Positions 2,475 to 44,824 of a stretch of 64,000 nt of DNA are shown in pieces (positions within the stretch are counted from its first letter, which is position 1; each line of letters begins with the position of its first letter). The stretch covers positions 6,428 through 70,427 of the forward strand of contig CAMWLC010000004.1 in assembly GCA_947174995.1 (NCBI GenBank), in the 5' to 3' direction. Made by a program: the position numbers and the translations under genes. Below the pieces are notes generated by a model. It was not told where the DNA came from, searched no databases, and saw only the letters and a program-made list of their open reading frames with translations. This stretch comes from an uncultured Porphyromonadaceae bacterium (lineage in GTDB: Bacteria > Bacteroidota > Bacteroidia > Bacteroidales > Muribaculaceae).

Positions 2475-3074
2475 TTATTTGAAATTGATGGTCGCTTCGT
2501 AGCCGTTTGATTCAAAGAAACTCCTGAAATAATCCCTTGCCTTGTTCTGTGCGCGCTCGGTGATAATCTTTTTGAAGGAATCGTTTCGGGCGAGTTCCTT
2601 CTTGAAATCCTTGTTGGCCGCCTCCTTTGCCTTTGCTCGCTCGGCCGAACCGAACCGTGAGCGGAGCAACCCGATGTTGGTGTATTCCTCGCGCAGGGTC
2701 ATGTCGCGTCCCGAGAGATCCACTTCCACGGGCGGCAGGGTGACAGTGACGGTGTGCGCATCGTCGTCAAAGATTAGGTCATCGGGTGAAAAGCGTGACA
2801 TATCTACTGAAGCGCGAAGATATGTATCGTAGGAATATACCCCGATTCGCTTGCCCCAGAGCTTCGAGTCATCAGTCACGGCGGTCTTTGTCACGGACAT
2901 GGAGGCAAAGACCATGCGGTCGGTGCGTGTAAGCTCGCGGTAAAGGTCGGAATGAAATGCTTTCATATCCGGTGTGGCGTCATCCTTCGAGCCGGAAGTG
3001 TCGGAACATGAGGCGCCTCCGAAGGCCAGCATAAGGAACGTCAGTATATTCAGCAGGGAAACACTTTGCTTCAT
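2475..3074 (-). CDS. DUF4230-like lipoprotein
   Basis: The start is taken at MKQSVSLLNILTFLMLAFGGASC (lipobox), not at the upstream Met of the 207-aa track ORF. It is paralogous in layout to 1823-2434. Confidence 0.5.
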   Translation of the reverse strand: MKQSVSLLNILTFLMLAFGGASCSDTSGSKDDATPDMKAFHSDLYRELTRTDRMVFASMSVTKTAVTDDSKLWGKRIGVYSYDTYLRASVDMSRFSPDDLIFDDDAHTVTVTLPPVEVDLSGRDMTLREEYTNIGLLRSRFGSAERAKAKEAANKDFKKELARNDSFKKIITERAQNKARDYFRSFFESNGYEATINFK

Positions 3075-3108: not shown

Positions 3109-3303
3109 TAAGTAAGTATTCAAATTTAAACGATATAATCAAAAGTAAGTGCTCACTTGATCTTTTATACAATCTGCGGCTTCTTTTTTGCCGCTTTCAG
3201 CTTGTCGCTCAGTCGCATAGCTCGCTATGCTCCCTCTCTCCGCACAGAAATCGTCTAAAAAACAAGCTCGCATATTGTATAAATTAAATTTGAACACTTA
3301 CTT
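3109..3303. mobile_element. TIR element, copy A (195 bp, inverted relative to copies B and C)
   Basis: Starts TAAGTAAGTATTCAAATTTAAA and ends TTAAATTTGAACACTTACTTA. It is nearly identical to the reverse complement of 33570-33766, while the flanking DNA is unrelated. Confidence 0.85.
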
Positions 3304-3462
3304 ATGGAATTAGATTTGTATACTCCCTTAGACAGTGAATTGGGACGTGAGTTTAGGTGATAAATCTCAAGAAATGTTAACGGAGTGGGGAATATATACG
3401 GGAAATCGAGGAAAATTTTAAAAAAACAGCTTGAAAAATTTGGATGTGATGAAAATAATGCT

Positions 3463-3470
3463 TAACTTTG
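3463..3470 (+). promoter_or_regulatory. Bacteroidetes-type -7 box (TAACTTTG) upstream of tRNA-Cys
   Basis: Matches TAnnTTTG, 40 nt upstream of the tRNA 5' end. Confidence 0.4.
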
Positions 3471-3509
3471 CACTCGCAAACGGGGGATAACCCGGGAGCA
3501 AGAAAATTT

Positions 3510-3580
3510 GGTTCCATGTCCGAGTGGTTAGGTACCGGTCTGCAAAACCGTTTACACCAGTTCGAGTCTGGTTGGAACCT
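3510..3580 (+). tRNA. tRNA-Cys (anticodon GCA)
   Basis: Folded by hand. It has a 7-bp acceptor stem (GGTTCCA/TGGAACC), a perfect 5-bp T stem (ACCAG/CTGGT) with a TTCGAGT loop, and the anticodon loop CTGCAAA. The discriminator is U, the CysRS identity element. The D stem is irregular and the top anticodon-stem pair is mismatched. Confidence 0.8.
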
Positions 3581-3587
3581 CTTGAGC

Positions 3588-3616
3588 AGGATTGCCCGTC
3601 GGGCAATCCTTTTTTG
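3588..3616 (+). terminator. Rho-independent terminator after tRNA-Cys
   Basis: AGGATTGCCC-GTC-GGGCAATCCT followed by TTTTTT. Confidence 0.8.
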
Positions 3617-3679
3617 TATCTGTACGGACTTGACTTGCCAAGTCCGCCATCCCGTTTTGTCTCTGTCACCTCATGGACT

Positions 3680-4717
3680 TCACCGATATCGGGCGTAAAT
3701 GTCCGCTCCTTTCTGTTTGGCTATCCTGATGTGTTCGGGATTGTGTGGGTCAACACCATATTTCGACAACGGGGGCACCACCACCGGGGTGCCGGGGCGT
3801 ATGCGATCGGGATGTCCGAGAATAGCGGAGTTCTCTTCATATATATAGGGCCAGAGATTGAAGTTGCCGTAATGATCTTTGGCCATGGTGGTGAGATAGC
3901 GGGTGCGGGTGATGGTGTCTATCACCGCTTCAGTAGCTGCGGAGGCCATATCTCCCGAGGAATCAGACGGGCGCGTCGGAACGGCCTCTTCGGAAATACC
4001 GGGTTCCTGGTTGGATATGGTATCGGCACCGTCGCTTGCGGGCCATTGCTCTGCAATTACCGTATCGGATAAACCGTCCGCGGAGAAATCGGGAATCAAC
4101 CGGTCGCGGTATATGTACAGCATCGCCCCCCCGGCTATTATAGCCGCTGTCACGAAACCGGCAGCGAATCCAAGGCCAAACCTCCATCTTCTGCGTGAAC
4201 CGTGATGGTGACGGGAGCGATGATGATGAGTTGTCTCCGGTTCTTCATGAACAGTTTCTTCCTGCAGTGGTTCTTCATGAACAGTTTCTTCCTGCAGTGG
4301 TTCTTCCTGCACTGTTTCTTCGGGAGCGATATTTTCATTCTCCGTTTCGACCGGTTCCGGTGAGGGTGACTCCTGGAGTCGGTCATCAGGGAGGTCGGAG
4401 GGTATCTCAACCGTATCAAAGGCACCGAACGGAGCGTTGACGGCCCGGGAGAGATCCCTGGACGGTGTGAACGAAACCTTGTAGTGGCCGGCTATCTCGA
4501 TATTCTCGCCGGAGGTGACATCCACACTGCGACGCGGCTGTACGGGGATGGTGCGGAAAGATCCGAGACCCTTTATCCTCACTGTTTCCGAGACTTCGAG
4601 CGCAGCGGATGCCTCCTGACATAATTCCCTCACGAAATCCTCGCATACCTTTTTGCTCAGGCCGGTCTGCTTGCTCATCAAGGAGGATATGCCGGGAAGT
4701 GTTAGCTTGTTGTTCAT
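3680..4717 (-). CDS. HU-like N-terminal domain / acidic repeat / TM / LysM-like C-terminal protein
   Basis: 345 aa. The N-terminus (VRIKGLGSFRT..., HYKVSFTPS) resembles an HU/IHF fold. It is followed by EEPLQEETVH repeats, His/Arg-rich and TM segments, and a C-terminus (HYGNFNLWPYIYEEN...IRPGTPVVVP) that is LysM-like. Confidence 0.55.
   Translation of the reverse strand: MNNKLTLPGISSLMSKQTGLSKKVCEDFVRELCQEASAALEVSETVRIKGLGSFRTIPVQPRRSVDVTSGENIEIAGHYKVSFTPSRDLSRAVNAPFGAFDTVEIPSDLPDDRLQESPSPEPVETENENIAPEETVQEEPLQEETVHEEPLQEETVHEEPETTHHHRSRHHHGSRRRWRFGLGFAAGFVTAAIIAGGAMLYIYRDRLIPDFSADGLSDTVIAEQWPASDGADTISNQEPGISEEAVPTRPSDSSGDMASAATEAVIDTITRTRYLTTMAKDHYGNFNLWPYIYEENSAILGHPDRIRPGTPVVVPPLSKYGVDPHNPEHIRIAKQKGADIYARYR
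4241..4310. repeat. 30-bp in-frame tandem repeat (about 2.3 units) inside the HU-like/LysM gene
   Basis: TTCTTCATGAACAGTTTCTTCCTGCAGTGG occurs at 4241-4270 and 4271-4300, followed by a partial third unit. Confidence 0.9.
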
Positions 4718-5061: not shown

Positions 5062-5209
5062 AAGGTAAGATATGCGACTTTCAGGATGGAAAATCACTTA
5101 CAAAATTAAGTAAATTATCCCGGAATCAAAAATATTTCTTAACTTTGACACATAGTTCGTTTAATTTTTGAGAATTACTTATACTCTGTAAATTTTGAGA
5201 ACTTCGTAT

Positions 5210-24318: not shown

Positions 24319-24323
24319 CCTTT

Positions 24324-24631
24324 AGTAGAGGAGACTTCCAGCCTCCTCAAATCAGCAGCGAAATTTAGAAAGGAGGGTGGAAGCCTCCTCTACTTTATGT
24401 TGCGAAATTGTTAAACTTTGGGGGTTGGTTCAACCGATTTTGTGGGAGGTACGTTACACTGATACAAAAGCAAGAAATCGTTTCATGATGTTAGGTTAGT
24501 TAGTTAGAAAAGTATTATGGAAAACACTGACAGAGGGCCCGCTGCGAAGCGGGCCCTTTGCCGTCACAGTAGAGGAGGCTTCCAGCCTCCTTGCATCCGG
24601 CAGTGCAAGTAGAGGAGGCTTCCAGCCTCCT
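24324..24631. repeat. Cluster of four copies of the 24-nt hairpin motif AGTAGAGGAGGCTTCCAGCCTCCT
   Basis: Copies lie at 24324-24347 (one substitution), 24371-24394 (inverted, one substitution), 24568-24591 and 24608-24631 (identical direct copies). Each contains an AGGAGGC/GCCTCCT stem. Confidence 0.85.
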
Positions 24632-24632
24632 T

Positions 24633-24830
24633 ATAAGTAGTTCTCAAAAATTAATGAATACATAAAACTTAGATGTTTTTGAGGCGATTCGGGTGCGGAA
24701 TGAGGGAGAATACGTATGTATTCGACTGAATGACAAATCCGAAGCGGCCAAAAACAGCAAGTTTTATGATTCAAGATTTTTCTTGAAATACTTTGAAATA
24801 TATGTCGTTTAATTTTTGAGAACTACTTAT
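24633..24830. mobile_element. TIR element, diverged copy D (198 bp)
   Basis: ATAAGTAGTTCTCAAAAATTAA ... TTAATTTTTGAGAACTACTTAT is a perfect 22-bp inverted repeat. The interior aligns with copies A-C, and substitutions in the stems are paired (see findings). Confidence 0.8.
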
Positions 24831-27520: not shown

Positions 27521-27576
27521 AATTCATAATTTTCCTTTGAATTTGAACACTTACTAAATATTCAATACCGAACCAC

Positions 27577-29295
27577 ATGGCAAACACTACTGCTGCGGTC
27601 ACGCCTAAGAGCGTACCGTTGAACGACAAGGCCTGGGCACGCTGGACAGCCCTGCTTCTGCTGGCTTTGGCGATGTTCTGTTCCTACATCTTCATGGATG
27701 TGCTCTCGCCCATCAAGAATCTCCTTCAGGACACGCGCGGATGGGACAACACCGCCTTCGGCACCATGCAGAGCGCCGAGACGTTTCTCAACGTATTCAT
27801 TTTCTTCCTGATTTTCGCGGGCATTATCCTTGACAAACTGGGTGTCCGTTTCACGGCCCTCCTTTCCGGAGCCGTGATGCTTGTCGGCGCTGTCATCAAC
27901 TGGTACGCCCTCACCCCTGAGTTTGAGGGTACCGCGCTGCAGCAGTGGTTTACCGACAATCTCAACTATATTCCCATTTTCGAGCAGTTGGGTGTATCAC
28001 CCTTCTATGAAGGAATGCCTGCCTCGGCCAAACTTTCCGCCATCGGCTTCATGATATTCGGATGCGGAACGGAGATGGCCGGTATAACAGTGAGCCGGGG
28101 TATCGTAAAATGGTTCCAGGGACGCGAAATGGCCCTTGCTATGGGTTCCGAAATGGCCCTCGCACGTCTCGGGGTCGCCACCTGCATGATATTCTCGCCT
28201 GTATTCGCCAACCTCGGCGGCCATGTTGAGGTGAGCCGTTCCGTGGCCTTCGGCGTCGTGATGCTGATGATCGCCATGATTATGTTCATCGTCTATTTCT
28301 TCATGGACCGCAAACTTGATGAGCAGACCAATATCGAGGAAGAAAAGGATGACCCCTTCAGAATTTCCGACATCGGCAAGATTCTGCGCTCAAGCGGATT
28401 CTGGCTTGTGGCAATGCTCTGCGTGCTCTATTACTCCGCTATCTTCCCCTTCCAGAAGTATGCCGTCAATATGCTTCAGTGCAATCTCACCTTCACCGAT
28501 GTCGATCCCGACTCCTTCTGGGCCTCGGATGCCGTGTCGGTGGTGCAATATGTTGTGATGCTCGCTGCAGCCGCCACAGCCTTCGCAAGCAACTTCATGA
28601 GCAACAAGGGAATGAAATATGGTCTGCTCGGAGCCGGTATCTGCGCTCTTGTGGCCTACTGCTACATGGGCTATATGAGGCAGAGCGCGGCAGCAATCTT
28701 TGCCGTGTTCCCCCTCCTCGCAGTTGGCATCACTCCCATACTCGGCAAATACGTGGATTACAAAGGCAAAGCGGCCTCCATGCTCGTGATAGGTTCCTTG
28801 CTACTGATAGCATGTCATCTTACTTTCGCCTTCATCCTGCCCGAGTTCAAGAACAGCCCGGTGGGAGGCGTCATCGTGGCTTATCTTACGATTCTCGTGC
28901 TCGGTGCCTCCTTCTCGCTGGTGCCCGCCTCGTTGTGGCCGAGTGTGCCGAAGCTCGTAGACTCCAAGATCATCGGATCGGCTTACGCCCTCATTTTCTG
29001 GATTCAGAACATAGGATTGTGGCTTTTCCCGCTTTTGATCGGAAAGGTGCTTGACGCCACAAACACAGATGTTGTGGCCCAGGTAGCTGCCGGAACGATG
29101 ACTGAGGATCAGGCAGCCGTCAGCTACAACTACACCTACGCCCTTCTCATGCTCGCGGGGCTTGGTGTGGCCGCGTTGCTGATCGGGCTTTGGCTTAAGG
29201 TGATCGACCGCAAGCATCACTATGGTCTTGAGGAGCCCAACGTCAAACCGACGGCAGCCTCTGAAGAGGCTGAGGTCGTCGCTGCCGAAGAGTAA
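27577..29295 (+). CDS. MFS transporter
   Basis: 572 aa with about 12 or more hydrophobic helices and an MFS-like N-terminal half. The substrate is unknown. Confidence 0.65.
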   Translation: MANTTAAVTPKSVPLNDKAWARWTALLLLALAMFCSYIFMDVLSPIKNLLQDTRGWDNTAFGTMQSAETFLNVFIFFLIFAGIILDKLGVRFTALLSGAVMLVGAVINWYALTPEFEGTALQQWFTDNLNYIPIFEQLGVSPFYEGMPASAKLSAIGFMIFGCGTEMAGITVSRGIVKWFQGREMALAMGSEMALARLGVATCMIFSPVFANLGGHVEVSRSVAFGVVMLMIAMIMFIVYFFMDRKLDEQTNIEEEKDDPFRISDIGKILRSSGFWLVAMLCVLYYSAIFPFQKYAVNMLQCNLTFTDVDPDSFWASDAVSVVQYVVMLAAAATAFASNFMSNKGMKYGLLGAGICALVAYCYMGYMRQSAAAIFAVFPLLAVGITPILGKYVDYKGKAASMLVIGSLLLIACHLTFAFILPEFKNSPVGGVIVAYLTILVLGASFSLVPASLWPSVPKLVDSKIIGSAYALIFWIQNIGLWLFPLLIGKVLDATNTDVVAQVAAGTMTEDQAAVSYNYTYALLMLAGLGVAALLIGLWLKVIDRKHHYGLEEPNVKPTAASEEAEVVAAEE

Positions 29296-33569: not shown

Positions 33570-33766
33570 TAAGTAAGTGTTCAAATTTAATTTATACAAT
33601 AGGCGAGCCTGTTTTTTTAGACGATTTCTGTGCGGAGAGAGGGAGCATAGCGAGCTATGCGACTGAGCGACAAGCTGAAAGCGGCAAAAAAGAAGCCGCA
33701 GATTGTATAAAAGATCAAGTGAGCACTTACTTTTGATTATATCGTTTAAATTTGAACACTTACTTA
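33570..33766. mobile_element. TIR element, copy B (197 bp)
   Basis: TAAGTAAGTGTTCAAATTTAA ... TTTAAATTTGAACACTTACTTA. The last A of the element is the A of the ATG of the following small ORF. Confidence 0.85.
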
Positions 33767-33927
33767 TGGATACCAATCTTATTTTACAATATTCCGCCGT
33801 GGGAGGCTCATTTCTTCTCGCCGGTGTCCTTATGGTAATGAGGAGATGCCGCCGGCCCCGCAAAAGGGGCGGAGGCTGCTGCGGGTGCGCTCTGAAGGAA
33901 TCCTGCGCTTCGCGTAAGAGGGAGTGA
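33766..33927 (+). CDS. FeoB-associated Cys-rich membrane protein-like small protein (53 aa)
   Basis: MDTNLILQYSAVGGSFLLAGVLMVMRRCRRPRKRGGGCCGCALKESC is one TM helix followed by a basic stretch and a GCCGC cluster, as in the FeoB-associated Cys-rich family. No feoB gene is present in the window. Confidence 0.55.
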   Translation: MDTNLILQYSAVGGSFLLAGVLMVMRRCRRPRKRGGGCCGCALKESCASRKRE

Positions 33928-33952
33928 GGGGGAGGAGTAAGTGTTGAGGGTT

Positions 33953-33998
33953 AAGTGATATGGGTTAGAGGTTTGTAAACCTCTAACCCATATCACTT
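33953..33998 (+). terminator. Long perfect hairpin after the small Cys-rich ORF
   Basis: AAGTGATATGGGTTAGAGGTTT-GT-AAACCTCTAACCCATATCACTT. The 3' arm abuts or overlaps the start of element copy C. Confidence 0.6.
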
Positions 33999-34193
33999 AT
34001 GTAAGTGTTCAAATTTAATTTATACAATATGCGAGTTTATTTTTTAGCTGATTTCAGTGCGGAGGAAAGGAGCATAGCGAGCTATGCGACTGAGCGACAA
34101 GCTGAAAGCGGCAAAAAAGAAGCCGCAGATTGTATAAAAGATCAAGTGAGCATTTACTTTTGATTATATCGTTTAAATTTGAACACTTACTTA
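33998..34193. mobile_element. TIR element, copy C (196 bp, same orientation as B)
   Basis: TATGTAAGTGTTCAAATTTAA ... TTTAAATTTGAACACTTACTTA. Relative to B, the interior carries several substitutions and a 1-nt indel. Confidence 0.85.
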
Positions 34194-34214
34194 ATATTGC
34201 TTTTGGAAGTTGAA

Positions 34215-35291
34215 TTATCGGATGACTACCTTGGTGGCTTTACAGTCGGCGACACGGATGAAGATACCGGCGGAGGGGTTGTTGACTTTCACACCCTGGA
34301 GGGAGTAGTAAGCCACGGGAGTCTCGGCGGCACCTACTGACGAGATGCCGGTGGAGTTGCTCTGCGCGAGATATGTGAGGATGTTTCCGGTGAGCTTCTC
34401 GAGATTGGAGTGGAAAGCATTGTTCTCTGTCCGGGGAGCCCATTCGCAGGCGGCGAGACCGTTGGCCACTATTCTGCCTTTGATCTCGGTGGTAGGGTTG
34501 AAGTCTACCAGACCGGCCACACAGTAGTCCTGCACGTGGCCCCAGGTGCCGATGACGGTGCAGTCAAACTGGCTCTCGAACTTCTCGAGGGTGTTCTTTC
34601 CCTCGGTGGTGTAGGAGTATGCGTTGAGGTCCCACATGCAGTTGTGGTCTTCACGATGGATGGCGGTGCCATCGGCAGTGCCCTCCATGGGGAAGCTCTC
34701 GTGGGGGTATCCCGTCTTTTCAGGAGCGATAGTCTCCAGACCTGCGTATGCGGGATGGTTGCGGCGGTCATATACCTGCGTCAGGTCGGGTTCGGCGGCA
34801 TTGAACTGCATGGAGCCGAAAAGTGCGTTGACTGTCCAGATGTCAGTGCCCCGGCCTCCGTCGCCGTCACCGAAAATGCCGGGAGCATAGTTCTCGGGAA
34901 GGCGGCCGAGAGCCGATACGAGCTGGGTGGCGTGTTTGGAGAGATAGAGGGAGCCGCCATCCTTGATATAGTTGGTGAGGGCCTCCTTTACGGCCGCGCC
35001 GGCCATTTCCTCGGGAAGACGGTCGGCTCCGTGACCGATGCCGATACGGTCGATATGGATCCAGAGCGCGTCCAGATCGGCGGCATTGATTTTCTCAATG
35101 GAGGAAAGGGTGATGAGCGCGCCCTCGGGAAACGCGCTTGTGAACCATGCTGCCGCGGCGGCCTCCTGCGCGTTGGCGGCGGACATATCGTCATGGCCTA
35201 CGAGCATACCCACCTTTTCGGCGGAAGCGTTCATCGGGAGAGAAGCCATCATAGCGGTGGCGGCAAGTGTGAGGGAAGTAAAGATTTTCAT
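34215..35291 (-). CDS. DUF4960-like secreted protein with T9SS CTD
   Basis: 358 aa with a signal peptide. The blocks DALWIHIDRIG, GGSLYLSKHATQ, REDHNCMW, TWGH and ANGLAA are shared with two modules of the GH32-like protein. The CTD is YYSLQGVKVNNPSAGIFIRVADCKATKVVIR. Confidence 0.6.
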   Translation of the reverse strand: MKIFTSLTLAATAMMASLPMNASAEKVGMLVGHDDMSAANAQEAAAAAWFTSAFPEGALITLSSIEKINAADLDALWIHIDRIGIGHGADRLPEEMAGAAVKEALTNYIKDGGSLYLSKHATQLVSALGRLPENYAPGIFGDGDGGRGTDIWTVNALFGSMQFNAAEPDLTQVYDRRNHPAYAGLETIAPEKTGYPHESFPMEGTADGTAIHREDHNCMWDLNAYSYTTEGKNTLEKFESQFDCTVIGTWGHVQDYCVAGLVDFNPTTEIKGRIVANGLAACEWAPRTENNAFHSNLEKLTGNILTYLAQSNSTGISSVGAAETPVAYYSLQGVKVNNPSAGIFIRVADCKATKVVIR

Positions 35292-35476
35292 GTCAGTGAA
35301 GTTAAAAAATTTGAAAAGTGTTGCGGAAAAGATTCCGGCGGCAAAATTAGAGTCGGATTATCGCAACGCCTTTCATTTCACTGACATATACTTGACAAAT
35401 CATTATTTTGAAAGGAAATGTCAGAATATAGCAAATACATGCCCCCAACTCATGAAATTTCAGAGCCTCCGGGGCC

Positions 35477-38254
35477 TCAGTCTTTCCGGATTGAATTGCG
35501 CAGTTCCGAGGGTGAGGTGCCATAGCAGTCGCGGAAGCACTTGGAGAGATATGCCGGGGAGGAGAAGCCCGATTCGTAGGCGATTTCGCTGATGCTGCGG
35601 TCAGTGGTGAGGAGCAGTTCGCGGGCCATCTTGAGCCGGAGATTGCGGAGTATCTCCGAAGCCGTGAGTCCCGTGAGGGCCTTCAGTTTCCTTGACATCT
35701 GCGCCGGACCGAGACCGAGGCGCGAGGCGATCTCCTCCAGGCTCGCGGATGAATCCGATATCCTTGCCTTTGCCTCCTTGAGAAAAGCTCTGTAAAACTC
35801 GCTCTCCAGGCTTCCGGCATCGTTGATGTCTATATCCTTTCCGGCGATGCGGTCACCGGAGGGTTGTCTCACCGACTCTTCGTCATATAACTCCCGGATA
35901 CGACGCCTGTTTTCGAGCAGATTCCGACATCGTGCCGTGAGCAGCTCGTGGCTGAAGGGCTTGGTGATATATCCGTCGGCACCGGAATCGTAACTCTCCA
36001 CGCGTTGTTCCTCAAGCTGGCAGGCTGTCAGCATAAGCACGGGAATGTGGGAGGTGGAGACCTCCTTTTTCAGGGCCGCGCAACACTCCAGACCATCCAT
36101 GCGGGGCATCATCAGGTCGCATATTATAAGGTCGGGCACATATCTTGTGGCCAACCCGAGAGCTTTGCGTCCATCAGAGGCCTTTATCACATTATATTCA
36201 TTGCCGAGAATATTGCCCACAAGACTGAGAATGTCGGGATTATCGTCAATTGCGAGCACAATGGGCTTGTCGGCGTCGAAAGTGGCGCCACCGCTTTCGG
36301 GGGGTGTAAAAATCACATCCACATCATCATTGTCCGGTTTCACCTCCGGAGTCTGTTCCTCATCCGAAACATGAATCACGGGGATCGTGACCGTAAACCG
36401 CGAGCCCTTGCCGGGAGTACTTTCCACGGAAATTCCGCCGCCGTGCATCTCTGCGAAGGCCCGCGCGAGGGCGAGTCCGATGCCCGAACCCTTGGGATTC
36501 ACGCGGTCCACCTGATAGAACCGCTCGAAAATCTTCTCCAGTTCGCCGGCCGCTATGCCGCTGCCGGTATCCTCTATGGAGAAAATGAAATTTTCCGGAG
36601 TCTGCCTGCACTCCAGCGTGATACATCCATGGCTCGGAGTGAACTTGAAGGCATTTGACATCAGATTGAAGAATATTCTTTCGATTTTCTCCACATCTAC
36701 AGCCATCCTGAAGTCCGAGGGTGTGCCGAAATCAGCTGAAAAACCTATATCACGTTTTCCCGCAACATTCAGGAATGAATCGGCCCACTCGCGGAAGAGA
36801 GACTGCATGTTTACCTCGGTGAGATGTAACTCGGATCTGCCGTTCTCATATTTCCTGAAATCCAGAATCTGGTCTATCATACGGCGCAGGATTCTGACAT
36901 TCCTGACGGCTATCTTCATCAGCCCGCGGTCGGTCTGGCTCAGGTTGCGGCTTTCGGCCAGACGCTCCACAGGTTCCGCAATCAGCGTGAGAGGAGTGCG
37001 CAGGTCGTGTGACACGTTGGTGAAAAACACGAGCTTCGACTTCGTGGCCTCGTCAAGAGCCTTGTAGAGGGCATCCTGCTTGTCGCGTTCCTCCGAGAGT
37101 TGCGCGTTTTTGGCGGTCAGAATGTTCTGATACTTGGTGCGTTGGCGAATGACTCTGACAGCCATGAAAATCGCTGCTCCGAGGAGCAGGGCTATTGCCA
37201 CGATGGAGTAGAGGAAGTAAGACTGTGCCCTGTGGCGCGACCAGATGTCGTCATACTTGGACTGGAGCAGGCGTATCTTGTTGGTCTCATCGTCAAGCAG
37301 ACGGTATTGCCTCAGCATTATATCGGCATTGTTGGAATCCACCGGGGGGAGGGCAGGACTGATCTGCACCTTGTCAAACGGACGATTCTGAAGGATGTCA
37401 AGGGCCGTTTTCACGAGACGATGGCCGTCTGTAGGATATATGAATGTTGCGTCTATAACGGAATCTGCCACTGCCTTGATGCCCAGGGCCGGAGCGGCAT
37501 CCGTGCCGAGCACCATCACATCCTCGCGTCCTGCTTTTTTCAGAGCCTTGGCCGCCCCGATGGCCATTAGGTCGTTATGAGCATATATGAGGCGGATATC
37601 CGGGTGTTTGCGTATAAGCGAATCGGCCACTCTCCCGGCGGGCACTTCCTTCCATCGTGCCGACACGGATGCCACATTGTGAAGTGCGGGAAAATCGGCA
37701 AGACGCGACACGAAGCCCTTGTGACGCAGAGCGGCCGGCGTAGAGCCCTCAAGACCTGTGATTTCAGCTATTGTCCCTCCTCCGTGAAGATGAGAGGCTG
37801 CATACTCGGCAGCCGTGCGTCCGATACCCTCGTTGTCAAACTCTATGAAAGCCGTGAAATCATCTCCCGTCACTCCTCTGTCGAATACGATCACCGGGAT
37901 ACCCTTGCGGTAGGCCTTGCTGAGCACCGGAGTCAGGGCCTCGGCCTGGTTTGGCGCGGCTATTATGACGTCCACGCCCTCTTCTATGAAATGTTCGATG
38001 TCGGCTATCTGACGGGCGTTGTCGTCATCGGCTGTGCGTATCTCCACATCAACCTCTGGATGAAACAGCACCTCGCGGTAGATCTCATCGTTCATCTTGG
38101 TGCGCCAGATGTCGTCGCTGCACTGCGACACCCCGATGCGCCAGGTGGCCTCTTTCTTTTCGCTGCATCCCCCGGATAATATAATGACCGACATCAGGAG
38201 CAAACCGGAAAAGAGATATGTGAGAGTCCCGAAGCCGAATGATTGCCGTTGCAT
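35477..38254 (-). CDS. Hybrid two-component system sensor/regulator (periplasmic sugar-binding domain, HisKA/HATPase, receiver, AraC HTH)
   Basis: 925 aa. The N-terminal type-I periplasmic-binding fold (WRIGVSQCSDDIWR..., IPVIVFDRG) is followed by a TM segment. Next come the H-box (FFTNVSHDLRTPLT), the G-boxes and the receiver (ILAIDDNPD...DLMMPRMDG). The C-terminus is an AraC HTH. The architecture matches the B. thetaiotaomicron fructose sensor BT1754. Confidence 0.8.
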   Translation of the reverse strand: MQRQSFGFGTLTYLFSGLLLMSVIILSGGCSEKKEATWRIGVSQCSDDIWRTKMNDEIYREVLFHPEVDVEIRTADDDNARQIADIEHFIEEGVDVIIAAPNQAEALTPVLSKAYRKGIPVIVFDRGVTGDDFTAFIEFDNEGIGRTAAEYAASHLHGGGTIAEITGLEGSTPAALRHKGFVSRLADFPALHNVASVSARWKEVPAGRVADSLIRKHPDIRLIYAHNDLMAIGAAKALKKAGREDVMVLGTDAAPALGIKAVADSVIDATFIYPTDGHRLVKTALDILQNRPFDKVQISPALPPVDSNNADIMLRQYRLLDDETNKIRLLQSKYDDIWSRHRAQSYFLYSIVAIALLLGAAIFMAVRVIRQRTKYQNILTAKNAQLSEERDKQDALYKALDEATKSKLVFFTNVSHDLRTPLTLIAEPVERLAESRNLSQTDRGLMKIAVRNVRILRRMIDQILDFRKYENGRSELHLTEVNMQSLFREWADSFLNVAGKRDIGFSADFGTPSDFRMAVDVEKIERIFFNLMSNAFKFTPSHGCITLECRQTPENFIFSIEDTGSGIAAGELEKIFERFYQVDRVNPKGSGIGLALARAFAEMHGGGISVESTPGKGSRFTVTIPVIHVSDEEQTPEVKPDNDDVDVIFTPPESGGATFDADKPIVLAIDDNPDILSLVGNILGNEYNVIKASDGRKALGLATRYVPDLIICDLMMPRMDGLECCAALKKEVSTSHIPVLMLTACQLEEQRVESYDSGADGYITKPFSHELLTARCRNLLENRRRIRELYDEESVRQPSGDRIAGKDIDINDAGSLESEFYRAFLKEAKARISDSSASLEEIASRLGLGPAQMSRKLKALTGLTASEILRNLRLKMARELLLTTDRSISEIAYESGFSSPAYLSKCFRDCYGTSPSELRNSIRKD

Positions 38255-38434
38255 TGGTGTAATTATTATGTGGTCATTAATTTTTCAGAGCTACTTAAGA
38301 ACTACTTATTCATTTCGGTGCAAAAATAAACCATACTCTTTTGAAATACAAATAATTGCTTTCAATATGCCGACAACTCCACAAATGTGATACAAAATGC
38401 ACGATTTTTGATACTCCCCTCCAGGCCGCCTCTC

Positions 38435-38442
38435 TACTTTTG
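38435..38442 (+). promoter_or_regulatory. -7 box (TACTTTTG) upstream of the GH32-like gene
   Basis: Matches TAnnTTTG, 92 nt upstream of the ATG at 38534. Its position argues against the 38387 start of the track ORF. Confidence 0.4.
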
Positions 38443-38533
38443 CATCGCCGTCCTCCCCGGCATAGTCATTCAACGGGCTTTCCCTCCGGAATGGAGACGA
38501 CGGACAGAAACGAAAACCAACAACCAAAAAATA

Positions 38534-41500
38534 ATGCTTTTTTCTATGACCGACAACATGACAAAACTCTGTATGGCCGCCCTGCTTACGGCAGCCGGAC
38601 ATACGGCGGCGGTCCATGCGGATCGTGTGGCATGGTTTCCCATGGATGTGCAGTCAGGGCTTAACGAGAGAGTCTCGGGAGGCCACTGGGACATCCAGGG
38701 CAACTTCGCGCCTATGCAGATTTCGCTTGACGCATCCCGTCCGGCCTGGCGCACGGACGGATATACATCGAAAGCCGTGGCTCATCTGGGCAATCTGGTG
38801 GATGGCTCCGAGATGAGCGCCACCGTCTGGGTGGCTCCCGACACATATCCCATCATCGTGCATGAGCATCCTACGGAGGAGAAGAGCGAAATTGTCAGCT
38901 GCCTGACCGACAACTCCGGATTCGGATTCTTCCTCGGACGCACCGGACATTATTCCTTCGTGACATACGTCGGAGGCGTGCGTGTGGAGGTGGAGTCAGA
39001 CCGGCTGCTTCCCCTTTGGGAGTGGACCTGCCTCTCCGGCGTGGTGTCAGACGGCAAGGTGCGCCTCTATGCAGGAAAGACCCTCGTCGGCGAGGCCGAC
39101 GCTCCCGGCAATGTGCGGGTAGCCGACAGCGAACTCTTCATCGCACGCCGCAATGACGGCGGCGACTGGCCCGGCGTGAATGTGCGTACATTCAACGGCG
39201 GCATCGGCGAAATCGCAGTTTACAGCAATGCTATCGGCGTCGACGAGATGGAGGACACCATGCCCGCGCTCCTCAATCTTCCCGCCGACCATTATAAAGG
39301 CAACCGCATGCGTGCCGGTTTTCACGGTCAGCCCGAGATGAACTGGACCAACGAGACCCACGGACTCATATACAGCGGTGGGCTCTATCACCTCTTCTTC
39401 CAGAAGACCGGCTCAGCGCCCGTGATGACACATCAACACTGGGGCCACATCGTGTCGGAAGACCTCATGCACTGGCGCGACACCCGACCCGCTCTCGCTC
39501 CCGGAGAGAGCTATGACATCAAGGGATGCTGGAGCGGCTGCGTGGCCATCGATCGGGCCCTCAACGGAGGCGCTCCCACCATTTTCTACACCGGTGTGGA
39601 CTACGCGCAGCCCTATCTCGCCATGGCCACCGCCACGGACGCTACACTCGCCAATTGGGAGAAATCGGCATCCAATCCCATCGTCACTCTCAAAGATGGT
39701 GCCGAGTCTCACTTCCGCGACTGCTTCTATTTCAAGGGAGACGACGGATGCTGCTATATGATCACCGGCACTTCCAAAGATGGACGCGCCGCCACTATGC
39801 TCCACCGTCTCGATGGCGACTCATGGACCGACCTCGGTTACAGCTGGGTATCGGAGGACGCAGGTGTAGATGGGAACTTTGCGGAAATGCCCAACCTCGT
39901 CAAACTCGGCGACAAGTGGATGATGACCACCACAGCACTCGGTTCCGATCAGGGTGTCGTATGCCGCTATCGCCTGGGTTCGCTTGACGGCGGACGTTTC
40001 GTGCCGGACGAAGCATACCGTCTGCCCCGCAAGGTGGACATCCTCGCGGAGCGCGGATTCGGACTCATGTCTCCCTCTCCCTCTGTGGATGCTTCGGGCA
40101 ATGTGATCGCCATGGGTATTGTGGCCGACAAGCTCCCCACCCATTATAACCTTTCCAACGGATTCGCGCATCTTTACAGCCTCCCGCGCGTGTGGACGCT
40201 CAGCGACGGCGAACTCGCCCAGGCTCCGCATCCCATGACGGAGACTCTGCGTGCCGAAGATGCCTTCGGCCAGTATCATGCAGCCGACGTAGCTCTCAAC
40301 GGCACTCTCAGCCTGGAGAACGTGCGTGGACGCGCCGCCGAAATCGACGCCCGCTTCACGGTAGGCACTTCCACCTTCGGCATCAACTTCTTCAAGAACG
40401 CCAAGGGTCGCCAGGCCACGCTTTCCTATAATCCCGCCACCCATGAACTCGCCGTTGACTTCGGCGGCATCAAGCGCTGGGGCCAGGATGAGGGAAATCC
40501 CAACCGTTTCTCCGCCATCATTCCCGCTGACCGCGCGCCGCGCGAGGGTGAGGAATTCCGCCTCCATCTTTTCCTTGACCGCTCCATCCTCGACATCTTT
40601 GCCGGAGACCGCTATGCAGCTTCCGTGAGAGTGTTCTGCGAGGATGATGAAGCCGACAACATCGAGCTTTTCGCCGACGGCCTCACCACTGTGGCGAGTG
40701 TTGATGCATATCTCATGGATGGTGGTGACCACACCGCAGAGCCTGTCGCTCCCAAGGAGTTCCAACTCCCGGCCAACAACGGCAAGGTGGCCTTCCTCAA
40801 GAGCAGCCTCGGCGTGAGTCAGCAGGAACAGGCCGCGCTTGATTTCTTCCGGCGCACCAATCCCAAAGGCACGGTTTTTGAAACTTCCGACCTCTCCGGC
40901 CTGAACACCAAGAAGATCGACTGCCTCTGGATCCACATCGACCGCATGGGTCTTGAACATGGTTGGGAGCATCTCCCTGCGGAGTTCGTGGCTCCCGAGG
41001 TTGTGGAGGCCGTGCAGAACTATCTCGAAGCCGGAGGCAACATCTACCTCACCTCACACGCCACGCAGTATGCCGTGGCAATCGGCCGACTCAACTCCCA
41101 CTACGCACCCAATGAGATAGCCACCGGCGAAGGTGGCCACGGCACCGACTCCTGGACCGTCAACCCCCGCATCATGCAGAGGTATGACCACTCCTCCCAC
41201 GCTATCTACAATGACCTGGAAGAGTGTGACATCTTTGAATGGAACGAAGGCACCTTCGGCCTTCTCTACGGCGGCGGCGCCAACATACATCGCGAAGACC
41301 ACAACTGCATGTGGCGTCTACGAGACTTCCACTTCAGCTCCGAGGGAGACAACCGCATAGAGCAGTTCGAGAACGCTACCCACTCCCGGGTGATCGGTAC
41401 ATGGGGCCAGGACAACTCCGACGAATTTGCCGGCATCATCGAGTTCTATCCCATGCAGAACGCCGACCATGAATACGGAGGCACCATTATAGCCAACGGT

Positions 41501-42664
41501 CTCGCCGCCTGCCAGTGGTATGTGGAGGGTGAGAACGCCTACGAGCAGAACCTCCAGCTCCTCACCGCCAACACATTCACATATCTCGCCAATCCCAACA
41601 AGGAGGAGCAGCCCGAAAATCCCGGCGGCGGTGAATACGTTGAGCCGGAAACCCCGGAAATCCCCGAATCCACAGGCAATGTGGCAATGTACATCGGTGC
41701 ATCCATGGCCGAGGTGATGAACAACGAGCAGGAATGGGGCGCTGTACAGCTCTTCCAGTCCCTCTATCCCGGAGCCACTGTCATCTATGGTCTCCCCGAG
41801 CTCATCAATGAATCGGAAACTCCCTACGATTGCCTCTGGGTACACGCTGAGCGCGACCACATCGGAGCCGGTTGGCAGAACGTGACCGGACTCAATGACG
41901 AGGCCACAATCAAAGCCCTGAGCGAGTATCTGAGCAACGGCGGAAACCTTTACCTCTCCAAGCATGCAGCCCAGCTCGTTGTGGCCCTCGGCCGCACGGA
42001 TGCAGCTCCGACCGAGTTCGGCAACACCGATCCGAACATCATCCTGGAGCGTCCCGACCATGATGAGTGGCAGGCCAACATCTACGCCAACGGCGAGGAC
42101 TGGTCAGAACACACCATCTTCTATCAGATTCCCTACATAGATGTGGAGCACGGCAAGGTGATCGACCTTCTCGGCAAGGGTGCAAGACACTATGACCGCA
42201 ACTGCATGTGGAAGCTCAACGACTTCGGCGGTCATGACGAGTTCTGTCGCAACCACAACGCCCGCGTGCTCGCCACATGGGGCCACAACGGCGGCCAGGC
42301 TTGGGGGGGCATCATAGAGTTCATGCCCCGCACAGGCACCATGAACCGCGCCATATCCCAGGATCGTGTTGAGGCTCGCAAGGGCACGGTAGTGGCCAAC
42401 GGCCTCGCAGCTTACCAAATAGCTCCTCTCCAGGGGTCCGTGAATCCCTATCAGGACAATATCAACAAGCTCACCTCCAATATCCTCGCCTATCTCTCGC
42501 CCGTGGCTGAGGAGGATCTGTCAACCGGTGTCGCCGGTGTTTCGACAGCCGAGGCTCCCGTGCGCTGGTTCACTCTCCAGGGAGTCGAGGTGGTTCGCCC
42601 GAGCGCAGCCGGCATCTACATCCGCGTCTGCGGCAAGGAGAGCCACAAGGTAATAGTGAAGTAA
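38534..42664 (+). CDS. Multidomain secreted GH32-like fructanase: LamG-like domain + GH32-like catalytic domain + 2 x DUF4960-like modules + T9SS CTD
   Basis: The start is taken at the first Met before the signal peptide (MTKLCMAALLTAAGHTAAVHA); 38546 or 38558 are also possible. GH32 blocks are LYHLFFQ, HWGHIVSEDLMHWRD, GCWSGCVAI, FRDC and AEMPNL. Two DUF4960-like modules lie at about 40785-41590 and 41680-42510. The CTD is RWFTLQGVEVVRPSAAGIYIRVCGKESHKVIVK. Confidence 0.75.
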   Translation: MLFSMTDNMTKLCMAALLTAAGHTAAVHADRVAWFPMDVQSGLNERVSGGHWDIQGNFAPMQISLDASRPAWRTDGYTSKAVAHLGNLVDGSEMSATVWVAPDTYPIIVHEHPTEEKSEIVSCLTDNSGFGFFLGRTGHYSFVTYVGGVRVEVESDRLLPLWEWTCLSGVVSDGKVRLYAGKTLVGEADAPGNVRVADSELFIARRNDGGDWPGVNVRTFNGGIGEIAVYSNAIGVDEMEDTMPALLNLPADHYKGNRMRAGFHGQPEMNWTNETHGLIYSGGLYHLFFQKTGSAPVMTHQHWGHIVSEDLMHWRDTRPALAPGESYDIKGCWSGCVAIDRALNGGAPTIFYTGVDYAQPYLAMATATDATLANWEKSASNPIVTLKDGAESHFRDCFYFKGDDGCCYMITGTSKDGRAATMLHRLDGDSWTDLGYSWVSEDAGVDGNFAEMPNLVKLGDKWMMTTTALGSDQGVVCRYRLGSLDGGRFVPDEAYRLPRKVDILAERGFGLMSPSPSVDASGNVIAMGIVADKLPTHYNLSNGFAHLYSLPRVWTLSDGELAQAPHPMTETLRAEDAFGQYHAADVALNGTLSLENVRGRAAEIDARFTVGTSTFGINFFKNAKGRQATLSYNPATHELAVDFGGIKRWGQDEGNPNRFSAIIPADRAPREGEEFRLHLFLDRSILDIFAGDRYAASVRVFCEDDEADNIELFADGLTTVASVDAYLMDGGDHTAEPVAPKEFQLPANNGKVAFLKSSLGVSQQEQAALDFFRRTNPKGTVFETSDLSGLNTKKIDCLWIHIDRMGLEHGWEHLPAEFVAPEVVEAVQNYLEAGGNIYLTSHATQYAVAIGRLNSHYAPNEIATGEGGHGTDSWTVNPRIMQRYDHSSHAIYNDLEECDIFEWNEGTFGLLYGGGANIHREDHNCMWRLRDFHFSSEGDNRIEQFENATHSRVIGTWGQDNSDEFAGIIEFYPMQNADHEYGGTIIANGLAACQWYVEGENAYEQNLQLLTANTFTYLANPNKEEQPENPGGGEYVEPETPEIPESTGNVAMYIGASMAEVMNNEQEWGAVQLFQSLYPGATVIYGLPELINESETPYDCLWVHAERDHIGAGWQNVTGLNDEATIKALSEYLSNGGNLYLSKHAAQLVVALGRTDAAPTEFGNTDPNIILERPDHDEWQANIYANGEDWSEHTIFYQIPYIDVEHGKVIDLLGKGARHYDRNCMWKLNDFGGHDEFCRNHNARVLATWGHNGGQAWGGIIEFMPRTGTMNRAISQDRVEARKGTVVANGLAAYQIAPLQGSVNPYQDNINKLTSNILAYLSPVAEEDLSTGVAGVSTAEAPVRWFTLQGVEVVRPSAAGIYIRVCGKESHKVIVK

Positions 42665-42717
42665 CGTCTGAAGTAGAGGAGGCATCCCTGCCTCCTTACT
42701 ACAATCTGTCGTACAGT

Positions 42718-42748
42718 TGAGGAGGCATCTTTGCCTCCTCACTTTTTT
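42718..42748 (+). terminator. Rho-independent terminator after the GH32-like gene
   Basis: TGAGGAGGC-ATCTTT-GCCTCCTCA followed by CTTTTTT. It is preceded by a second hairpin of the same family at 42677-42696. Confidence 0.8.
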
Positions 42749-42823
42749 ATAGACTGCACGCGATGTTTCCGTATTTGATTCTTATAACATCACCATGATA
42801 TTGCATTTCTCCGAACAAATAGT

Positions 42824-42831
42824 TAATTTTG
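42824..42831 (+). promoter_or_regulatory. -7 box (TAATTTTG) upstream of the AAA-ATPase/PD-(D/E)XK gene
   Basis: Matches TAnnTTTG, 21 nt upstream of the ATG at 42852. Confidence 0.4.
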
Positions 42832-42851
42832 TGGATTGACAACGACAGATT

Positions 42852-44432
42852 ATGAAGCAAGCTGAAGAAAAGGAGATAAAATATCCGGTCGGAATACAGA
42901 ACTTCTCGAAACTCCGTGAGGGAGGATATATGTATGTGGACAAGACCCGGATCATCTATGAACTGATCCGTAACTCAGGATATTATTTCCTGTCTCGCCC
43001 GCGACGCTTCGGAAAAAGCCTCATGCTTTCGACCCTGGAGGCCTACTATCAGGGAAGACGGGACCTCTTCAAGGGTCTGGCGCTTGAATCACTCGCGGAG
43101 AATTGGGAGCCGTGTCCCGTTCTACATCTCGACCTCAATAACGGAAATTACCGGGATGTCGAGGATCTCGAGAATGTCCTTGACTATCATTTGCGTGGGT
43201 GGGAAAAGGAATACGACATTCCGGCATCGGATGCGGAGCAGTGGTCGCTACCCCTTAGGTTCGCCACGGTAATACGCCGGGCATTCGAGATGTCGGGCAG
43301 CCGGGTGGCCATCCTCGTGGACGAGTATGACAAACCCATGCTTAACGCTGTGGGCGACGAGACCTTGGCCGAGAACTTCCGGTCGATACTCAAGGCTTTC
43401 TATTCCAACCTCAAGACGATGGACCGCTATATCCGGATCGGAGTCATGACCGGAGTGGCGAGATTCAGCAAGATATCCATCTTCTCGGATCTCAATAACC
43501 TGCGTGACATCTCATTCGAGGATGTTTTCTCCTCCATTTGCGGAATAACCTCGGATGAACTCACCTCATATTTTGCCGACGGTATTCAAGCATTGGCCAT
43601 GAAATACGGGAAATCCGCTGAAGAGATTCACAAGGATCTGGCTGTCAATTACGACGGATACCATTTCTCCATCAACAGCCCCGGCATATACAATCCCTTC
43701 AGCCTTATGAATGTTTTCGCATCTTCGGAAATAAGGAGTTATTGGTTTGAGTCGGGCACTCCGAGTTTCCTATTGAAACTCGTAGGACGGTCCGGGCGCA
43801 AGTTGGAAGACATATCCAATGTCGAGATAGGGGAGTCTACGCTCGTCTCTGCCGGTATCACGACCACAGATCCCATACCGGCCCTGTACCAATCAGGCTA
43901 TCTTACGATCAAAGGGTATGATCCCGAATTCAAGATTATCACTCTCGGCTATCCTAATCGGGAAGTGAAAGAGGGTTTTCTTAAATTCCTGTTGCCCCAT
44001 TACGTCAACATGGAAGATTCAGACAACGCGATGTATATACACAGGTTCGTTATGGATGTCAGAAACGGGGATCCGCGGGCTTTCATGCACAGACTTGCCG
44101 GACTGGTCGCGTGTGTGCCATATTCTGAAAAAGGTTCTGCGGAAGCACATTTTCAAAACGTATGCTATCTCATATTTACCCTTATGGGATATTTCACGAG
44201 AATGGAGCAACGTACCTCCGATGGTAGGATCGATTTGACGGTAGAAACAGACAAGTATGTCTATATCTTCGAGTTCAAGACGAATTCCACTGCAAGTGCA
44301 GCCATTGATCAAATATTTCGGAGGCAGTACTGGCTACCGTATGTTCATTCCGGGAAGAAGATCTTCCTCATCGGAGCCAATTTCAATACTAAGACACGCA
44401 GGATCTCCGAGTATGAAATCAAGACTCCGTAA
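42852..44432 (+). CDS. AAA-ATPase-like N-terminal domain + PD-(D/E)XK nuclease-like C-terminal domain protein (the multi-copy Bacteroidales 'ATP-binding protein' family)
   Basis: 526 aa. The N-terminus YPVGIQNFSKLREGGYMYVDKT...YYFLSRPRRFGKSL (Walker A-like) and ILVDEYD are typical of the AAA-ATPase_like family. The C-terminus (GRIDLTVETDKYVYIFEFK) is typical of the PDDEXK_9-type domain. Family names are from memory. Confidence 0.7.
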   Translation: MKQAEEKEIKYPVGIQNFSKLREGGYMYVDKTRIIYELIRNSGYYFLSRPRRFGKSLMLSTLEAYYQGRRDLFKGLALESLAENWEPCPVLHLDLNNGNYRDVEDLENVLDYHLRGWEKEYDIPASDAEQWSLPLRFATVIRRAFEMSGSRVAILVDEYDKPMLNAVGDETLAENFRSILKAFYSNLKTMDRYIRIGVMTGVARFSKISIFSDLNNLRDISFEDVFSSICGITSDELTSYFADGIQALAMKYGKSAEEIHKDLAVNYDGYHFSINSPGIYNPFSLMNVFASSEIRSYWFESGTPSFLLKLVGRSGRKLEDISNVEIGESTLVSAGITTTDPIPALYQSGYLTIKGYDPEFKIITLGYPNREVKEGFLKFLLPHYVNMEDSDNAMYIHRFVMDVRNGDPRAFMHRLAGLVACVPYSEKGSAEAHFQNVCYLIFTLMGYFTRMEQRTSDGRIDLTVETDKYVYIFEFKTNSTASAAIDQIFRRQYWLPYVHSGKKIFLIGANFNTKTRRISEYEIKTP

Positions 44433-44461
44433 CCCCGGGAGCGCACAGAGTCTCGTTATTG

Positions 44462-44564
44462 GCGCGGAGTTCACTCTCCAGGGTGTCGAGGTAGCTCGTC
44501 CGGGCGCACCGGCATCTACATACGCGTCTGCGGCAAGGAGAGTCACAAGGTAATAGTGAAGTAA
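44462..44564 (+). pseudogene. Remnant of a T9SS C-terminal domain coding end (duplicate of 42562-42664, frameshifted)
   Basis: About 90% identical by eye to the last ~100 nt of the GH32-like gene, including the TAA stop and the following GTCTGAAGT(A/T)GAGGAGG. A 1-nt deletion (CGCAGCCGGC versus CGCACCGGC) breaks the frame, and there is no upstream ORF. Confidence 0.7.
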
Positions 44565-44824
44565 CGTCTGAAGTTGAGGAGGTATCTCGAATTTTTTTGG
44601 TCAAAATAGGATATTATTGGAATAAATGGGGGTAATTGGAACTCTTGTTTACTCGGAATTGATTTCATAATTTTGATGTGGAAATGATAACACCATTATC
44701 AAATGCGAATCACATCTTAAATTATATCAATATGAAACATTTCTGCTTCTGTGCCTAATATGCTGATTATGGATATGCCACCATTTCCGGCAGCGGCAGG
44801 AACTTCAGTCTTTTAATTTCTCCG

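Follow-up and report, generated by a model that had tools for sequence, protein, structure and literature searches.

A Correia-like family of foldback miniature inverted-repeat elements with outward-facing promoter-like boxes in Muribaculaceae

Correia repeat-enclosed elements (CREE) of Neisseria have, according to published accounts (PMC2649163, PMC10969869), a conserved core between ends formed by inverted repeats; one end or both carry promoters, and their transcripts contain a hairpin. By analogy, they are the closest counterpart, in mode of working, of the repeat analyzed here, which lies in a stretch of 64,000 nucleotides (the window) from an uncultured Porphyromonadaceae bacterium placed in Muribaculaceae (GenBank assembly GCA_947174995.1, contig CAMWLC010000004.1, positions 6,428 to 70,427). 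Its copies A, B and C, together with a diverged copy D, very probably belong to a Muribaculaceae family of transposable elements of the miniature inverted-repeat type (MITEs), that is, foldback elements mobilised in trans, inserting at TA and carrying outward promoter-like boxes. This family is a Correia-like MITE, itself previously undescribed as far as the literature shows.

Both groups are non-coding, intergenic, high-copy elements of ~100-200 bp for which no cognate transposase has been identified. They share no sequence similarity, their hosts belong to different phyla, and the box found here is the Bacteroidota TAnnTTTG and not a sigma-70 promoter. Moreover, binding of IHF and cleavage by RNase III have been demonstrated for CREE; a near-invariant purine-rich internal loop, common to sister families, belongs to the Muribaculaceae family.

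Other described elements share part of these features. RUP of Streptococcus pneumoniae, a MITE derived from IS630/Tc1-mariner with a known matching IS630-type element, is likewise non-coding, bounded by terminal inverted repeats (TIRs), inserted at TA with duplication and mobilised in trans; however, its parent is known, while none was found for the Muribaculaceae family, whose membership of that group is not established. The MITEs of Porphyromonas gingivalis (BrickBuilt, MITE239) come from the same order, Bacteroidales, but host family, size and TIRs differ, and no sequence relation was seen, none having been tested for. Bacteroides IS1186, IS4351 and similar elements are autonomous insertion sequences of 1-2 kb that encode a transposase and whose outward promoters activate their neighbours; the likeness lies in the end of a mobile element offering a Bacteroidota-type promoter to an adjacent gene (a candidate one in our case), and the difference in that the element studied here is a 196-bp non-coding derivative. 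Finally, the FopS small RNAs of Bacteroides thetaiotaomicron combine a single-stranded 5' stretch with a hairpin acting as terminator, and are expressed from promoters of their own (PMC11697453). They also form multicopy non-coding families in gut Bacteroidales near polysaccharide-utilisation genes, but have neither TIRs nor TA duplication, and the window gave no Rfam match to FopS; identity of the element with FopS was rejected, the architecture being different.

Copies, distribution and insertion sites

Seven sites in the window match the 21-mer TAAGTAAGTGTTCAAATTTAA with no more than 3 mismatches, where shuffles lead one to expect 0, and six of these sites are the paired termini of A, B and C. 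The four copies are as follows.

3109-3304, minus (core strand): copy A, 196 bp, between the divergent DUF4230 gene (2475-3074, minus) and tRNA-Cys (3510-3581, plus)
33570-33766, plus: copy B, 197 bp, its 21-bp TIRs perfect, sited in the TA overlapping the ATG of a small open reading frame (ORF) at 33766-33927
33998-34193, plus: copy C, 196 bp, between the convergent 3' ends of the small ORF and a DUF4960/SGBP gene (34215-35291)
24634-24829, plus: copy D, a diverged copy of a sister subfamily with TIR TAAGTAGTTCTCAAAAATTAA, ~72% identical in the core

When A, B and C are aligned with 20 bp of flanking sequence, identity begins and ends precisely at TA...TA, with unrelated sequence on either side. 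Copy B shares 93-94% identity with C and 98% with A over 197 nt, a difference of 4 of 197 positions which suggests recent spread. The TIRs of A-C are 21 bp long with 0-1 mismatches (G>A at 3118 in A, A>T at 34000 in C), and the GC content of the elements is 35-38%, against 55% for the window. Copy D was recovered by nhmmer (E=2e-20) and reached 92 bits with the core covariance model described below, its apical hairpin and arms being preserved through compensatory changes. The initial annotation had recognised three near-identical copies with unrelated flanks, which are upheld at 93-98% identity, while the diverged copy D and three solo TIR-like 21-mers had been overlooked; the start of copy A at 3109 stands, its end being one base beyond the proposed 3303, and the TIRs then called perfect are so in B, A and C having one mismatch each. 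The one ORF inside the element (52 aa, GTG start) is disrupted by a 1-nt indel in copy B; it was rejected as a gene, as it is not conserved in the 186-bp class of the family, and so was a 17-aa mini-ORF behind GGAG, also not conserved.

An exact 18-mer of the TIR was searched in species-representative genomes, where at least 106 loci carry it, almost all of them in metagenome-assembled genomes or isolates of Muribaculaceae, with a few chance matches in unrelated phyla. The best named relatives of the flanking proteins are also from Muribaculaceae. A family hidden Markov model run over these loci and the window gave 136 non-overlapping matches, 56 of them full length, and flanks are unrelated among the dispersed copies; the count in related genomes that had been proposed as a check thus returned a repeat present in many copies across many Muribaculaceae genomes. 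The main size class is 186 bp among the matches listed, the window copies representing a subfamily of 196-197 bp whose right arm has gained an insertion of 10 nt, and the TIRs are retained in internally deleted forms of 31, 32, 66-137 and 170 bp. No match to the family was obtained in viral contigs (0 for a TIR 20-mer) or in phage or plasmid collections. In the Rfam scan of the window at the gathering threshold tRNA-Cys alone passes, and E-value thresholds gave generic hairpin matches far below the gathering score. Bulk MITE catalogues of Bacteroidota exist (PMC11602168); no description of this repeat family was found in the literature. At first the element had not been recognised as a described Bacteroidales repeat or an Rfam motif, in agreement with the lack of matches in Rfam, phages, plasmids and literature.

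The repeat leaves its trace in assemblies as well. Many contigs of one Paramuribaculum bin stop 55-75 bp inside the element, as expected where assembly breaks at a high-copy repeat. An apparent size class of 425-490 bp in UBA7141 was discarded as an artefact of N-runs within copies: UBA7141 contigs L003, L004, L028, L032, L038, L052, L053, L064, L066 and L091 (L numbers denote sequences outside the window) contain runs of 240-380 N inside element copies, probably scaffold gaps due to the repeat, and the genome collection reportedly also masks some stretches. Termite-gut metagenome contigs L118, L122, L131, L134, L139, L145 and L146 have the exact TIR 21-mer directly upstream of a tRNA-like sequence (GGGGGACCGCGGTAGCACAGTGGTTAAGG...GGTTCGATCCC), an arrangement that is recurrent on several contigs; it has the look of a repeat derived from a eukaryotic tRNA, and these matches were treated as chance and not as family members.

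TA is found at both ends of all copies and is the sole direct repeat flanking 51 full copies. Of 102 ends, 54 have T and 6 have G directly after the TA, which suggests a weak preference for A-TA-T targets; piggyBac-like TTAA and 3-bp duplication models do not fit the flanks. In locus L102 a copy is nested in a solo TIR (TAAATTTGAA/TA...TA/CTTACTTA), and removal of the element with one TA yields a full-length TTTGAATACTTACTTA, a TIR variant found in other copies. Since the full TIR is restored solely if TA was duplicated, TA is the duplicated target and not part of the element. CREE insertion duplicates TA too.

Copy B offers a second case. In all relatives a small Cys-rich membrane ORF, starting ...TATGGAT, lies 3' of the MTA/SAH nucleosidase gene, and copy B is absent, with a single TA at the site, both in the closest relative L113 (MTA nucleosidase 89% identity) and in L109-L112 (79-81%). 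In the window the site reads TCT(TA)-element-(TA)TGGATACC, the right side being TATGGAT, and when B is removed with one TA the sequences align through the start codon; therefore B entered the TA overlapping the ATG, and the duplicated right-hand TA rebuilt the start codon. Uninserted sites and target-site duplications had both been proposed as checks, and they are now available, the former for copy B in L113 and L109-L112, the latter from the L102 nested insertion and the B empty site. The copy A locus is syntenic in L114 and L115, which are without the element and too diverged for a base-level empty site. The presence/absence comparisons for A and B are between related species, and exact-protein look-ups for a within-species comparison returned the same genome only. 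The empty-site sequences predicted for the window copies are ...GAAAGTATGGAATT..., ...TTTTCTTATGGATACC... and ...ATATCACTTAATATTGC....

All 63 scored copies lie outside long ORFs, and their gene contexts are tandem (25), convergent (9) or divergent (7). The elements are short and non-coding, have TIRs and a TA target-site duplication, occur in many dispersed copies and are present or absent between related species, as MITEs are.

Foldback structure, conserved core and mobilising enzyme

Both strands of the element fold well beyond shuffles, with minimum free energies of -66 and -55 kcal/mol (z about -7). When 49 distinct copies are aligned by structure, 51 pairs can be assigned, distributed over the TIRs, three inner helices and an apical hairpin; 94.4% of the cells are paired across the 49 copies (94.8% in the TIRs), compared with 26-45% in slid controls, and 27 of the 51 pairs show compensatory double changes, values matched by 0 of 500 shuffles. 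The apical stem appears as GCATAGC/GCTATGC, GAATAT/ATATTC or GCTTAGC/GCTAAGC, and an inner helix as TTCCGG/CCGGAA, TTTCAG/CTGAAA or TTACGG/CCGTAA. Between the helices there is a purine-rich internal loop (5' GTGCGGAGnGAAGGAG, 3' CGACTGAGCGACAAG) conserved at 88% or more at nearly every position, in which one variable pair (columns 71-100) covaries (CG 14, UA 11, UG 7, GU 5). A covariance model of this core found exactly four instances in the window, which are copies A-D.

3181-3262, minus: core module of copy A, comprising the inner helices, the internal loop (GTGCGGAGnGAAGGAG / CGACTGAGCGACAAG) and the apical hairpin, 97.8 bits
33613-33694, plus: core module of copy B, 97.8 bits
34040-34121, plus: core module of copy C, 98 bits
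24676-24757, plus: core module of copy D, 92.1 bits

The same core was found in sister elements with other TIRs, F2 (L057, L051, L020 and L041) and F3 (L041). F2 has the TIR GAGCTTGTT... (GAGCTTGTTTAATAATAAATGTTACCGTCAGGG), a length of about 350-390 bp, two inverted cores and TAA/TTA at its junctions, and the TIR of F3 is TAAGAAACTGTTTAAATTT. The sister foldbacks are located at 136-671 in L057, 3300-3460 in L051, 1000-1400 in L020, and 3560-3760 and 4290-4680 in L041; in L057 an F2 copy sits within the TIR of an F1 copy.

Such conservation could also point to a role for the host, in which the core would be a functional structured RNA or a protein-binding hairpin acting on neighbouring transcripts (stability, processing, protein recruitment) and the repeat a vehicle kept for host use. 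The loop holds its sequence while the helices vary by compensatory change, its pair at columns 71-100 covaries, the core recurs in F2 and F3 with different TIRs, the core strand runs along the flanking gene direction in 18 tandem contexts and opposite to it in 7, and G-U exceeds A-C in the inner helices (45 vs 24), all in keeping with that role. However, these strand signals are weak and lineage-dependent and do not separate RNA from DNA: the counts ignore shared ancestry, and by column G-U is found in 19 pairs and A-C in 14. No Rfam family matches, no promoter box faces into the element, and many derivatives of 31-137 bp without the core keep their TIRs, which is expected of a selfish transposon but not of a selected RNA. 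Moreover, a core common to the sister families is explained most simply by descent from related parent insertion sequences, the foldback being selected for element propagation. We regard a core kept for its action on host transcripts as quite unlikely. The wider proposal of the ~80-nt core as a functional module (a protein-binding or processing RNA, or a hairpin for a host or transposition factor), spread beside genes as a mobile regulatory cassette (outward promoters and a structured RNA together) by a superfamily of F1, D-type, F2 and F3 foldback MITEs, seems to us improbable.

The loop also has a likeness, which we take to be compatible on paper and treat as a lead only, to a kink-turn, a motif defined by a helix, a 3-nt bulge, tandem sheared G.A/A.G pairs and an L7Ae-type protein partner (in our loop a GAG bulge, and GA/AG opposite CUGA with tandem G.A); the extra covarying pair at columns 71-100 lies between the GAG bulge and the G.A pairs. 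A by-eye check against the hammerhead core (CUGANGA...GAAA) gave no fit.

Regarding the enzyme that moves the MITE, a Pfam scan of 45 window ORFs detected no transposase, integrase or recombinase domain, in agreement with the earlier statement that the 64 kb contain no transposase or recombinase gene. The metagenome scan used a pattern filter (TIR+NR, excluding MITE-type subterminal bases) that left 30 loci, and these showed no transposase; the termite-gut matches were the tRNA-like repeat and marine ones AT-rich chance matches. Thus no transposase of any family adjoins these TIRs in the loci examined, and the full-length, transposase-encoding element with the same TIRs whose search had been recommended was found neither in the window, the listed genome loci and the 30 metagenome loci nor in the viral, plasmid and phage collections. 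Transposases of the IS630/Tc1-mariner type, with a DDE active site, are the classical TA-duplicating family, and for that reason the parent enzyme is most likely, we infer, of this type, TA duplication being the sole basis. Of the initial proposal of a TA-target MITE of the IS630/Tc1-mariner type, the TA duplication is therefore supported, while the assignment to that family has this duplication as its ground and no parent was found.

A hairpin conserved over the whole element, with compensatory changes, is also what hairpin-recognising HUH enzymes would select, and the copies could in that case be REPIN/PATE-type repeats moved as single-stranded hairpins by a RAYT-like or IS200/IS605-like HUH (Y1) transposase. 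TTAC tetranucleotides are present at both ends, and IS608 targets TTAC. Nevertheless, IS200/IS605 elements and REPINs are without sharp TIRs with TA duplication, while our copies have symmetric, sharp 21-bp TIRs and duplicate TA; besides, the short derivatives retain the TIRs alone, and there is no Y1 transposase in the window. We consider movement by an HUH enzyme extremely unlikely.

Promoter-like boxes and weighing of the model

As sigma-70 scanners do not model Bacteroidota promoters, a census of TAnnTTTG was taken in the window. Intergenic sequence, which is 12% of the window, holds 29 of 41 boxes, 9 of these within MITE copies, and 17 of the 20 intergenic boxes outside MITE copies are located 18-150 nt upstream of a gene start on the same strand, one of them being the tRNA-Cys promoter. 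TAnnTTTG is a specific promoter mark in the window. In each TIR the box TAAATTTG lies 12 nt from the end of the element and faces outward, so that the outward-facing box reported at first for both termini is present at either end of every copy. The boxes of most concern for the neighbouring genes are the following.

3121-3128, minus: TAAATTTG in the left TIR of copy A, a Bacteroidota -7-type box 46 nt upstream of the start codon (ATG) of gene 2475-3074; candidate promoter
3285-3292, plus: TAAATTTG in the right TIR of copy A, pointing to tRNA-Cys, itself with a conserved promoter at 3463-3470
33747-33754, plus: TAAATTTG in the right TIR of copy B, preceding the small-ORF ATG by 11 nt
3140-3147, 33728-33735 and 34155-34162: second TAnnTTTG box, TACTTTTG, made by the 10-nt insertion; right arm, 19 nt upstream of the TIR box

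The gene at 2475-3074, first annotated as DUF4230-like, indeed matches this domain (Pfam PF14014, E=5e-21). Its only upstream boxes are in copy A, at 46 and 65 nt from the ATG, with none in the gap of 34 nt (given earlier as 35 bp, the adjacency itself being correct) or beyond the element. Copy A is therefore a candidate promoter source for the DUF4230 gene, and it is plausible from this arrangement that it supplies its putative promoter; likewise, a copy landing just upstream of a gene can, judging by the position of the boxes, replace or add a promoter. The native state of the small ORF, as seen in relatives, is close coupling to the upstream gene, and read-through from that gene is an alternative to the copy B box. 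The gene downstream of copy D has its own box beyond the element. The tRNA-Cys promoter (window 3447-3475) reads TTTG-N20-TAACTTTG and is conserved base for base in L114-L116, where the flanking proteins share 63-67% identity; it provides a local reference for promoter geometry.

A segment of ~190 bp with 21-bp inverted repeats and promoter-like boxes might as well be an inverton, flipped by a site-specific recombinase so as to switch its neighbours, and copy A is inverted with respect to B and C. Bacteroidales invertible promoters have the same geometry, a segment between inverted repeats. Correia elements, according to a review, can invert (PMC10969869). However, the boxes are symmetric and outward in both TIRs, so that flipping leaves the neighbour-facing box unchanged; no recombinase gene is found in the 64 kb; the copies were inserted with duplication of TA, and relatives have an empty site; and independent assemblies agree in orientation at the two locus pairs compared (window vs L001, an ENA metagenome contig that matches the window, and L130 vs L136), a sample of just two. 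High copy number and deletion derivatives reduced to TIRs are also ill-suited to a regulatory switch, and we judge an inverton very unlikely.

For the preferred MITE reading we propose that a transposase encoded outside the window would recognise the 21-bp TIRs, and that the element would enter a TA dinucleotide which becomes duplicated. The parent would be a TIR-bounded (AGTAAGTGTTCAAATTTAA) element encoding this transposase. The arms would pair over their whole length, hairpin and internal loop being under selection, presumably because they are required for copy propagation, and the outward TAAATTTG in the TIR would let a nearby copy donate a promoter, in the case of copy A probably to the DUF4230 gene. 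The transposase family, current activity, transcription from the TIRs and a binding partner of the loop are the parts of this model that we infer.

Several observations weigh against it. The empty site of copy B comes from a different species-level lineage and not from a strain of the same species, its left flank is too diverged to be aligned base by base, and the exact empty-site 24-mer for B had 0 matches in metagenomes. No TIR pair 0.8-3 kb apart was found in 106 genome loci among the matches listed, nor in 30 metagenome loci, and an all-against-all comparison of 729 ORFs from loci (~1 Mb) contained no multi-copy ORF. Covariation along a palindrome could partly stem from a few amplified master copies and not from selection on each copy. 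As for the promoters, the element has no TTTG -33 element at the usual ~20-nt spacing, copy C faces two gene 3' ends only, and element ends are directed at gene 5' ends (39) and at 3' ends (43) with similar frequency. The position of copy C and this parity indicate that promoter supply is a side effect and not the reason why the family exists.

Neighbouring sequence and significance

Three solo TIR-like 21-mers were also located in the window.

27537-27557, minus: F1-type, 2 mismatches; outward end 19 nt upstream of the ATG of an MFS gene (27577-29295)
5161-5181, minus: D-type, 1 mismatch; 28 nt upstream of the ATG (5210) of a TraB/GumN gene
38277-38297, minus: D-type, 2 mismatches; in the divergent region between a hybrid two-component gene (35477-38254) and a GH32 gene

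They lie 19-28 nt from the start codons of the TraB/GumN, MFS transporter and hybrid two-component sensor genes, and may be remnants of excised or deleted copies kept in promoters or 5' leaders. At 38298 the 21-mer at 38277-38297 is followed in tandem by another, partial TIR end, GAACTACTTA.

The left TA of copy C also belongs to a perfect 48-bp palindrome (TAAGTGATATGGGTTAGAGGTTT/AAACCTCTAACCCATATCACTTA, 33952-33999) that adjoins the copy. With termini (TAAGTG...CACTTA) similar to MITE ends, this palindrome is unique to its locus among the sequences compared, and it may be either a mini-derivative of the family or a terminator serving the small ORF; just upstream of it, GAGTAAGTGTTGAGGGT at 33936-33951 resembles a decayed TIR. 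Between the phosphofructokinase gene and copy D (window 24323-24633) there are four units of a 26-nt hairpin, AGTAGAGGAGGCTTCCAGCCTCCTT (24323 plus, 24395 minus, 24567 plus and 24607 plus), a second small repeat type whose last unit ends at the left TA of copy D.

The small ORF at 33766-33927 encodes 53 aa (MDTNLILQYSAVGG...RRCRRPRKRGGGCCGCALKESC...) with a hydrophobic segment at the N-terminus and a CCGC motif at the C-terminus, and has no Pfam match; we take it to resemble FeoB-associated Cys-rich membrane peptides, and it was likely missed by gene callers. In relatives L109-L112 a topoisomerase gene lies directly 3' of this ORF, and in the window 11.7 kb (33928-45622) stand between them, with the DUF4960/SGBP gene, a hybrid two-component sensor, a GH32 protein of 1376 aa, an AAA-ATPase/PD-(D/E)XK protein and a protein of 203 aa and unknown function. 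Copy C is located at the left junction of this stretch, and no repeat was found at the right junction (45437-45622). It may represent an island for fructan utilisation, acquired or lost between lineages.

Muribaculaceae are dominant, poorly studied gut bacteria, mainly known from fragmented metagenome bins, and the family described here breaks their assemblies, with contig ends and N-gaps inside its copies. It marks recent genome change and sets consensus promoter boxes beside genes, also at the border of a locus for fructan utilisation. Should the TIR boxes be active, insertion of the MITE would be a ready source of between-strain expression variation; if the conserved loop has a partner, dozens of natural variants would be at hand for finding it. 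Otherwise this would be an ordinary selfish repeat, one that annotation pipelines should mask and name. The family is thus relevant both to genome annotation and to strain variation in Muribaculaceae.

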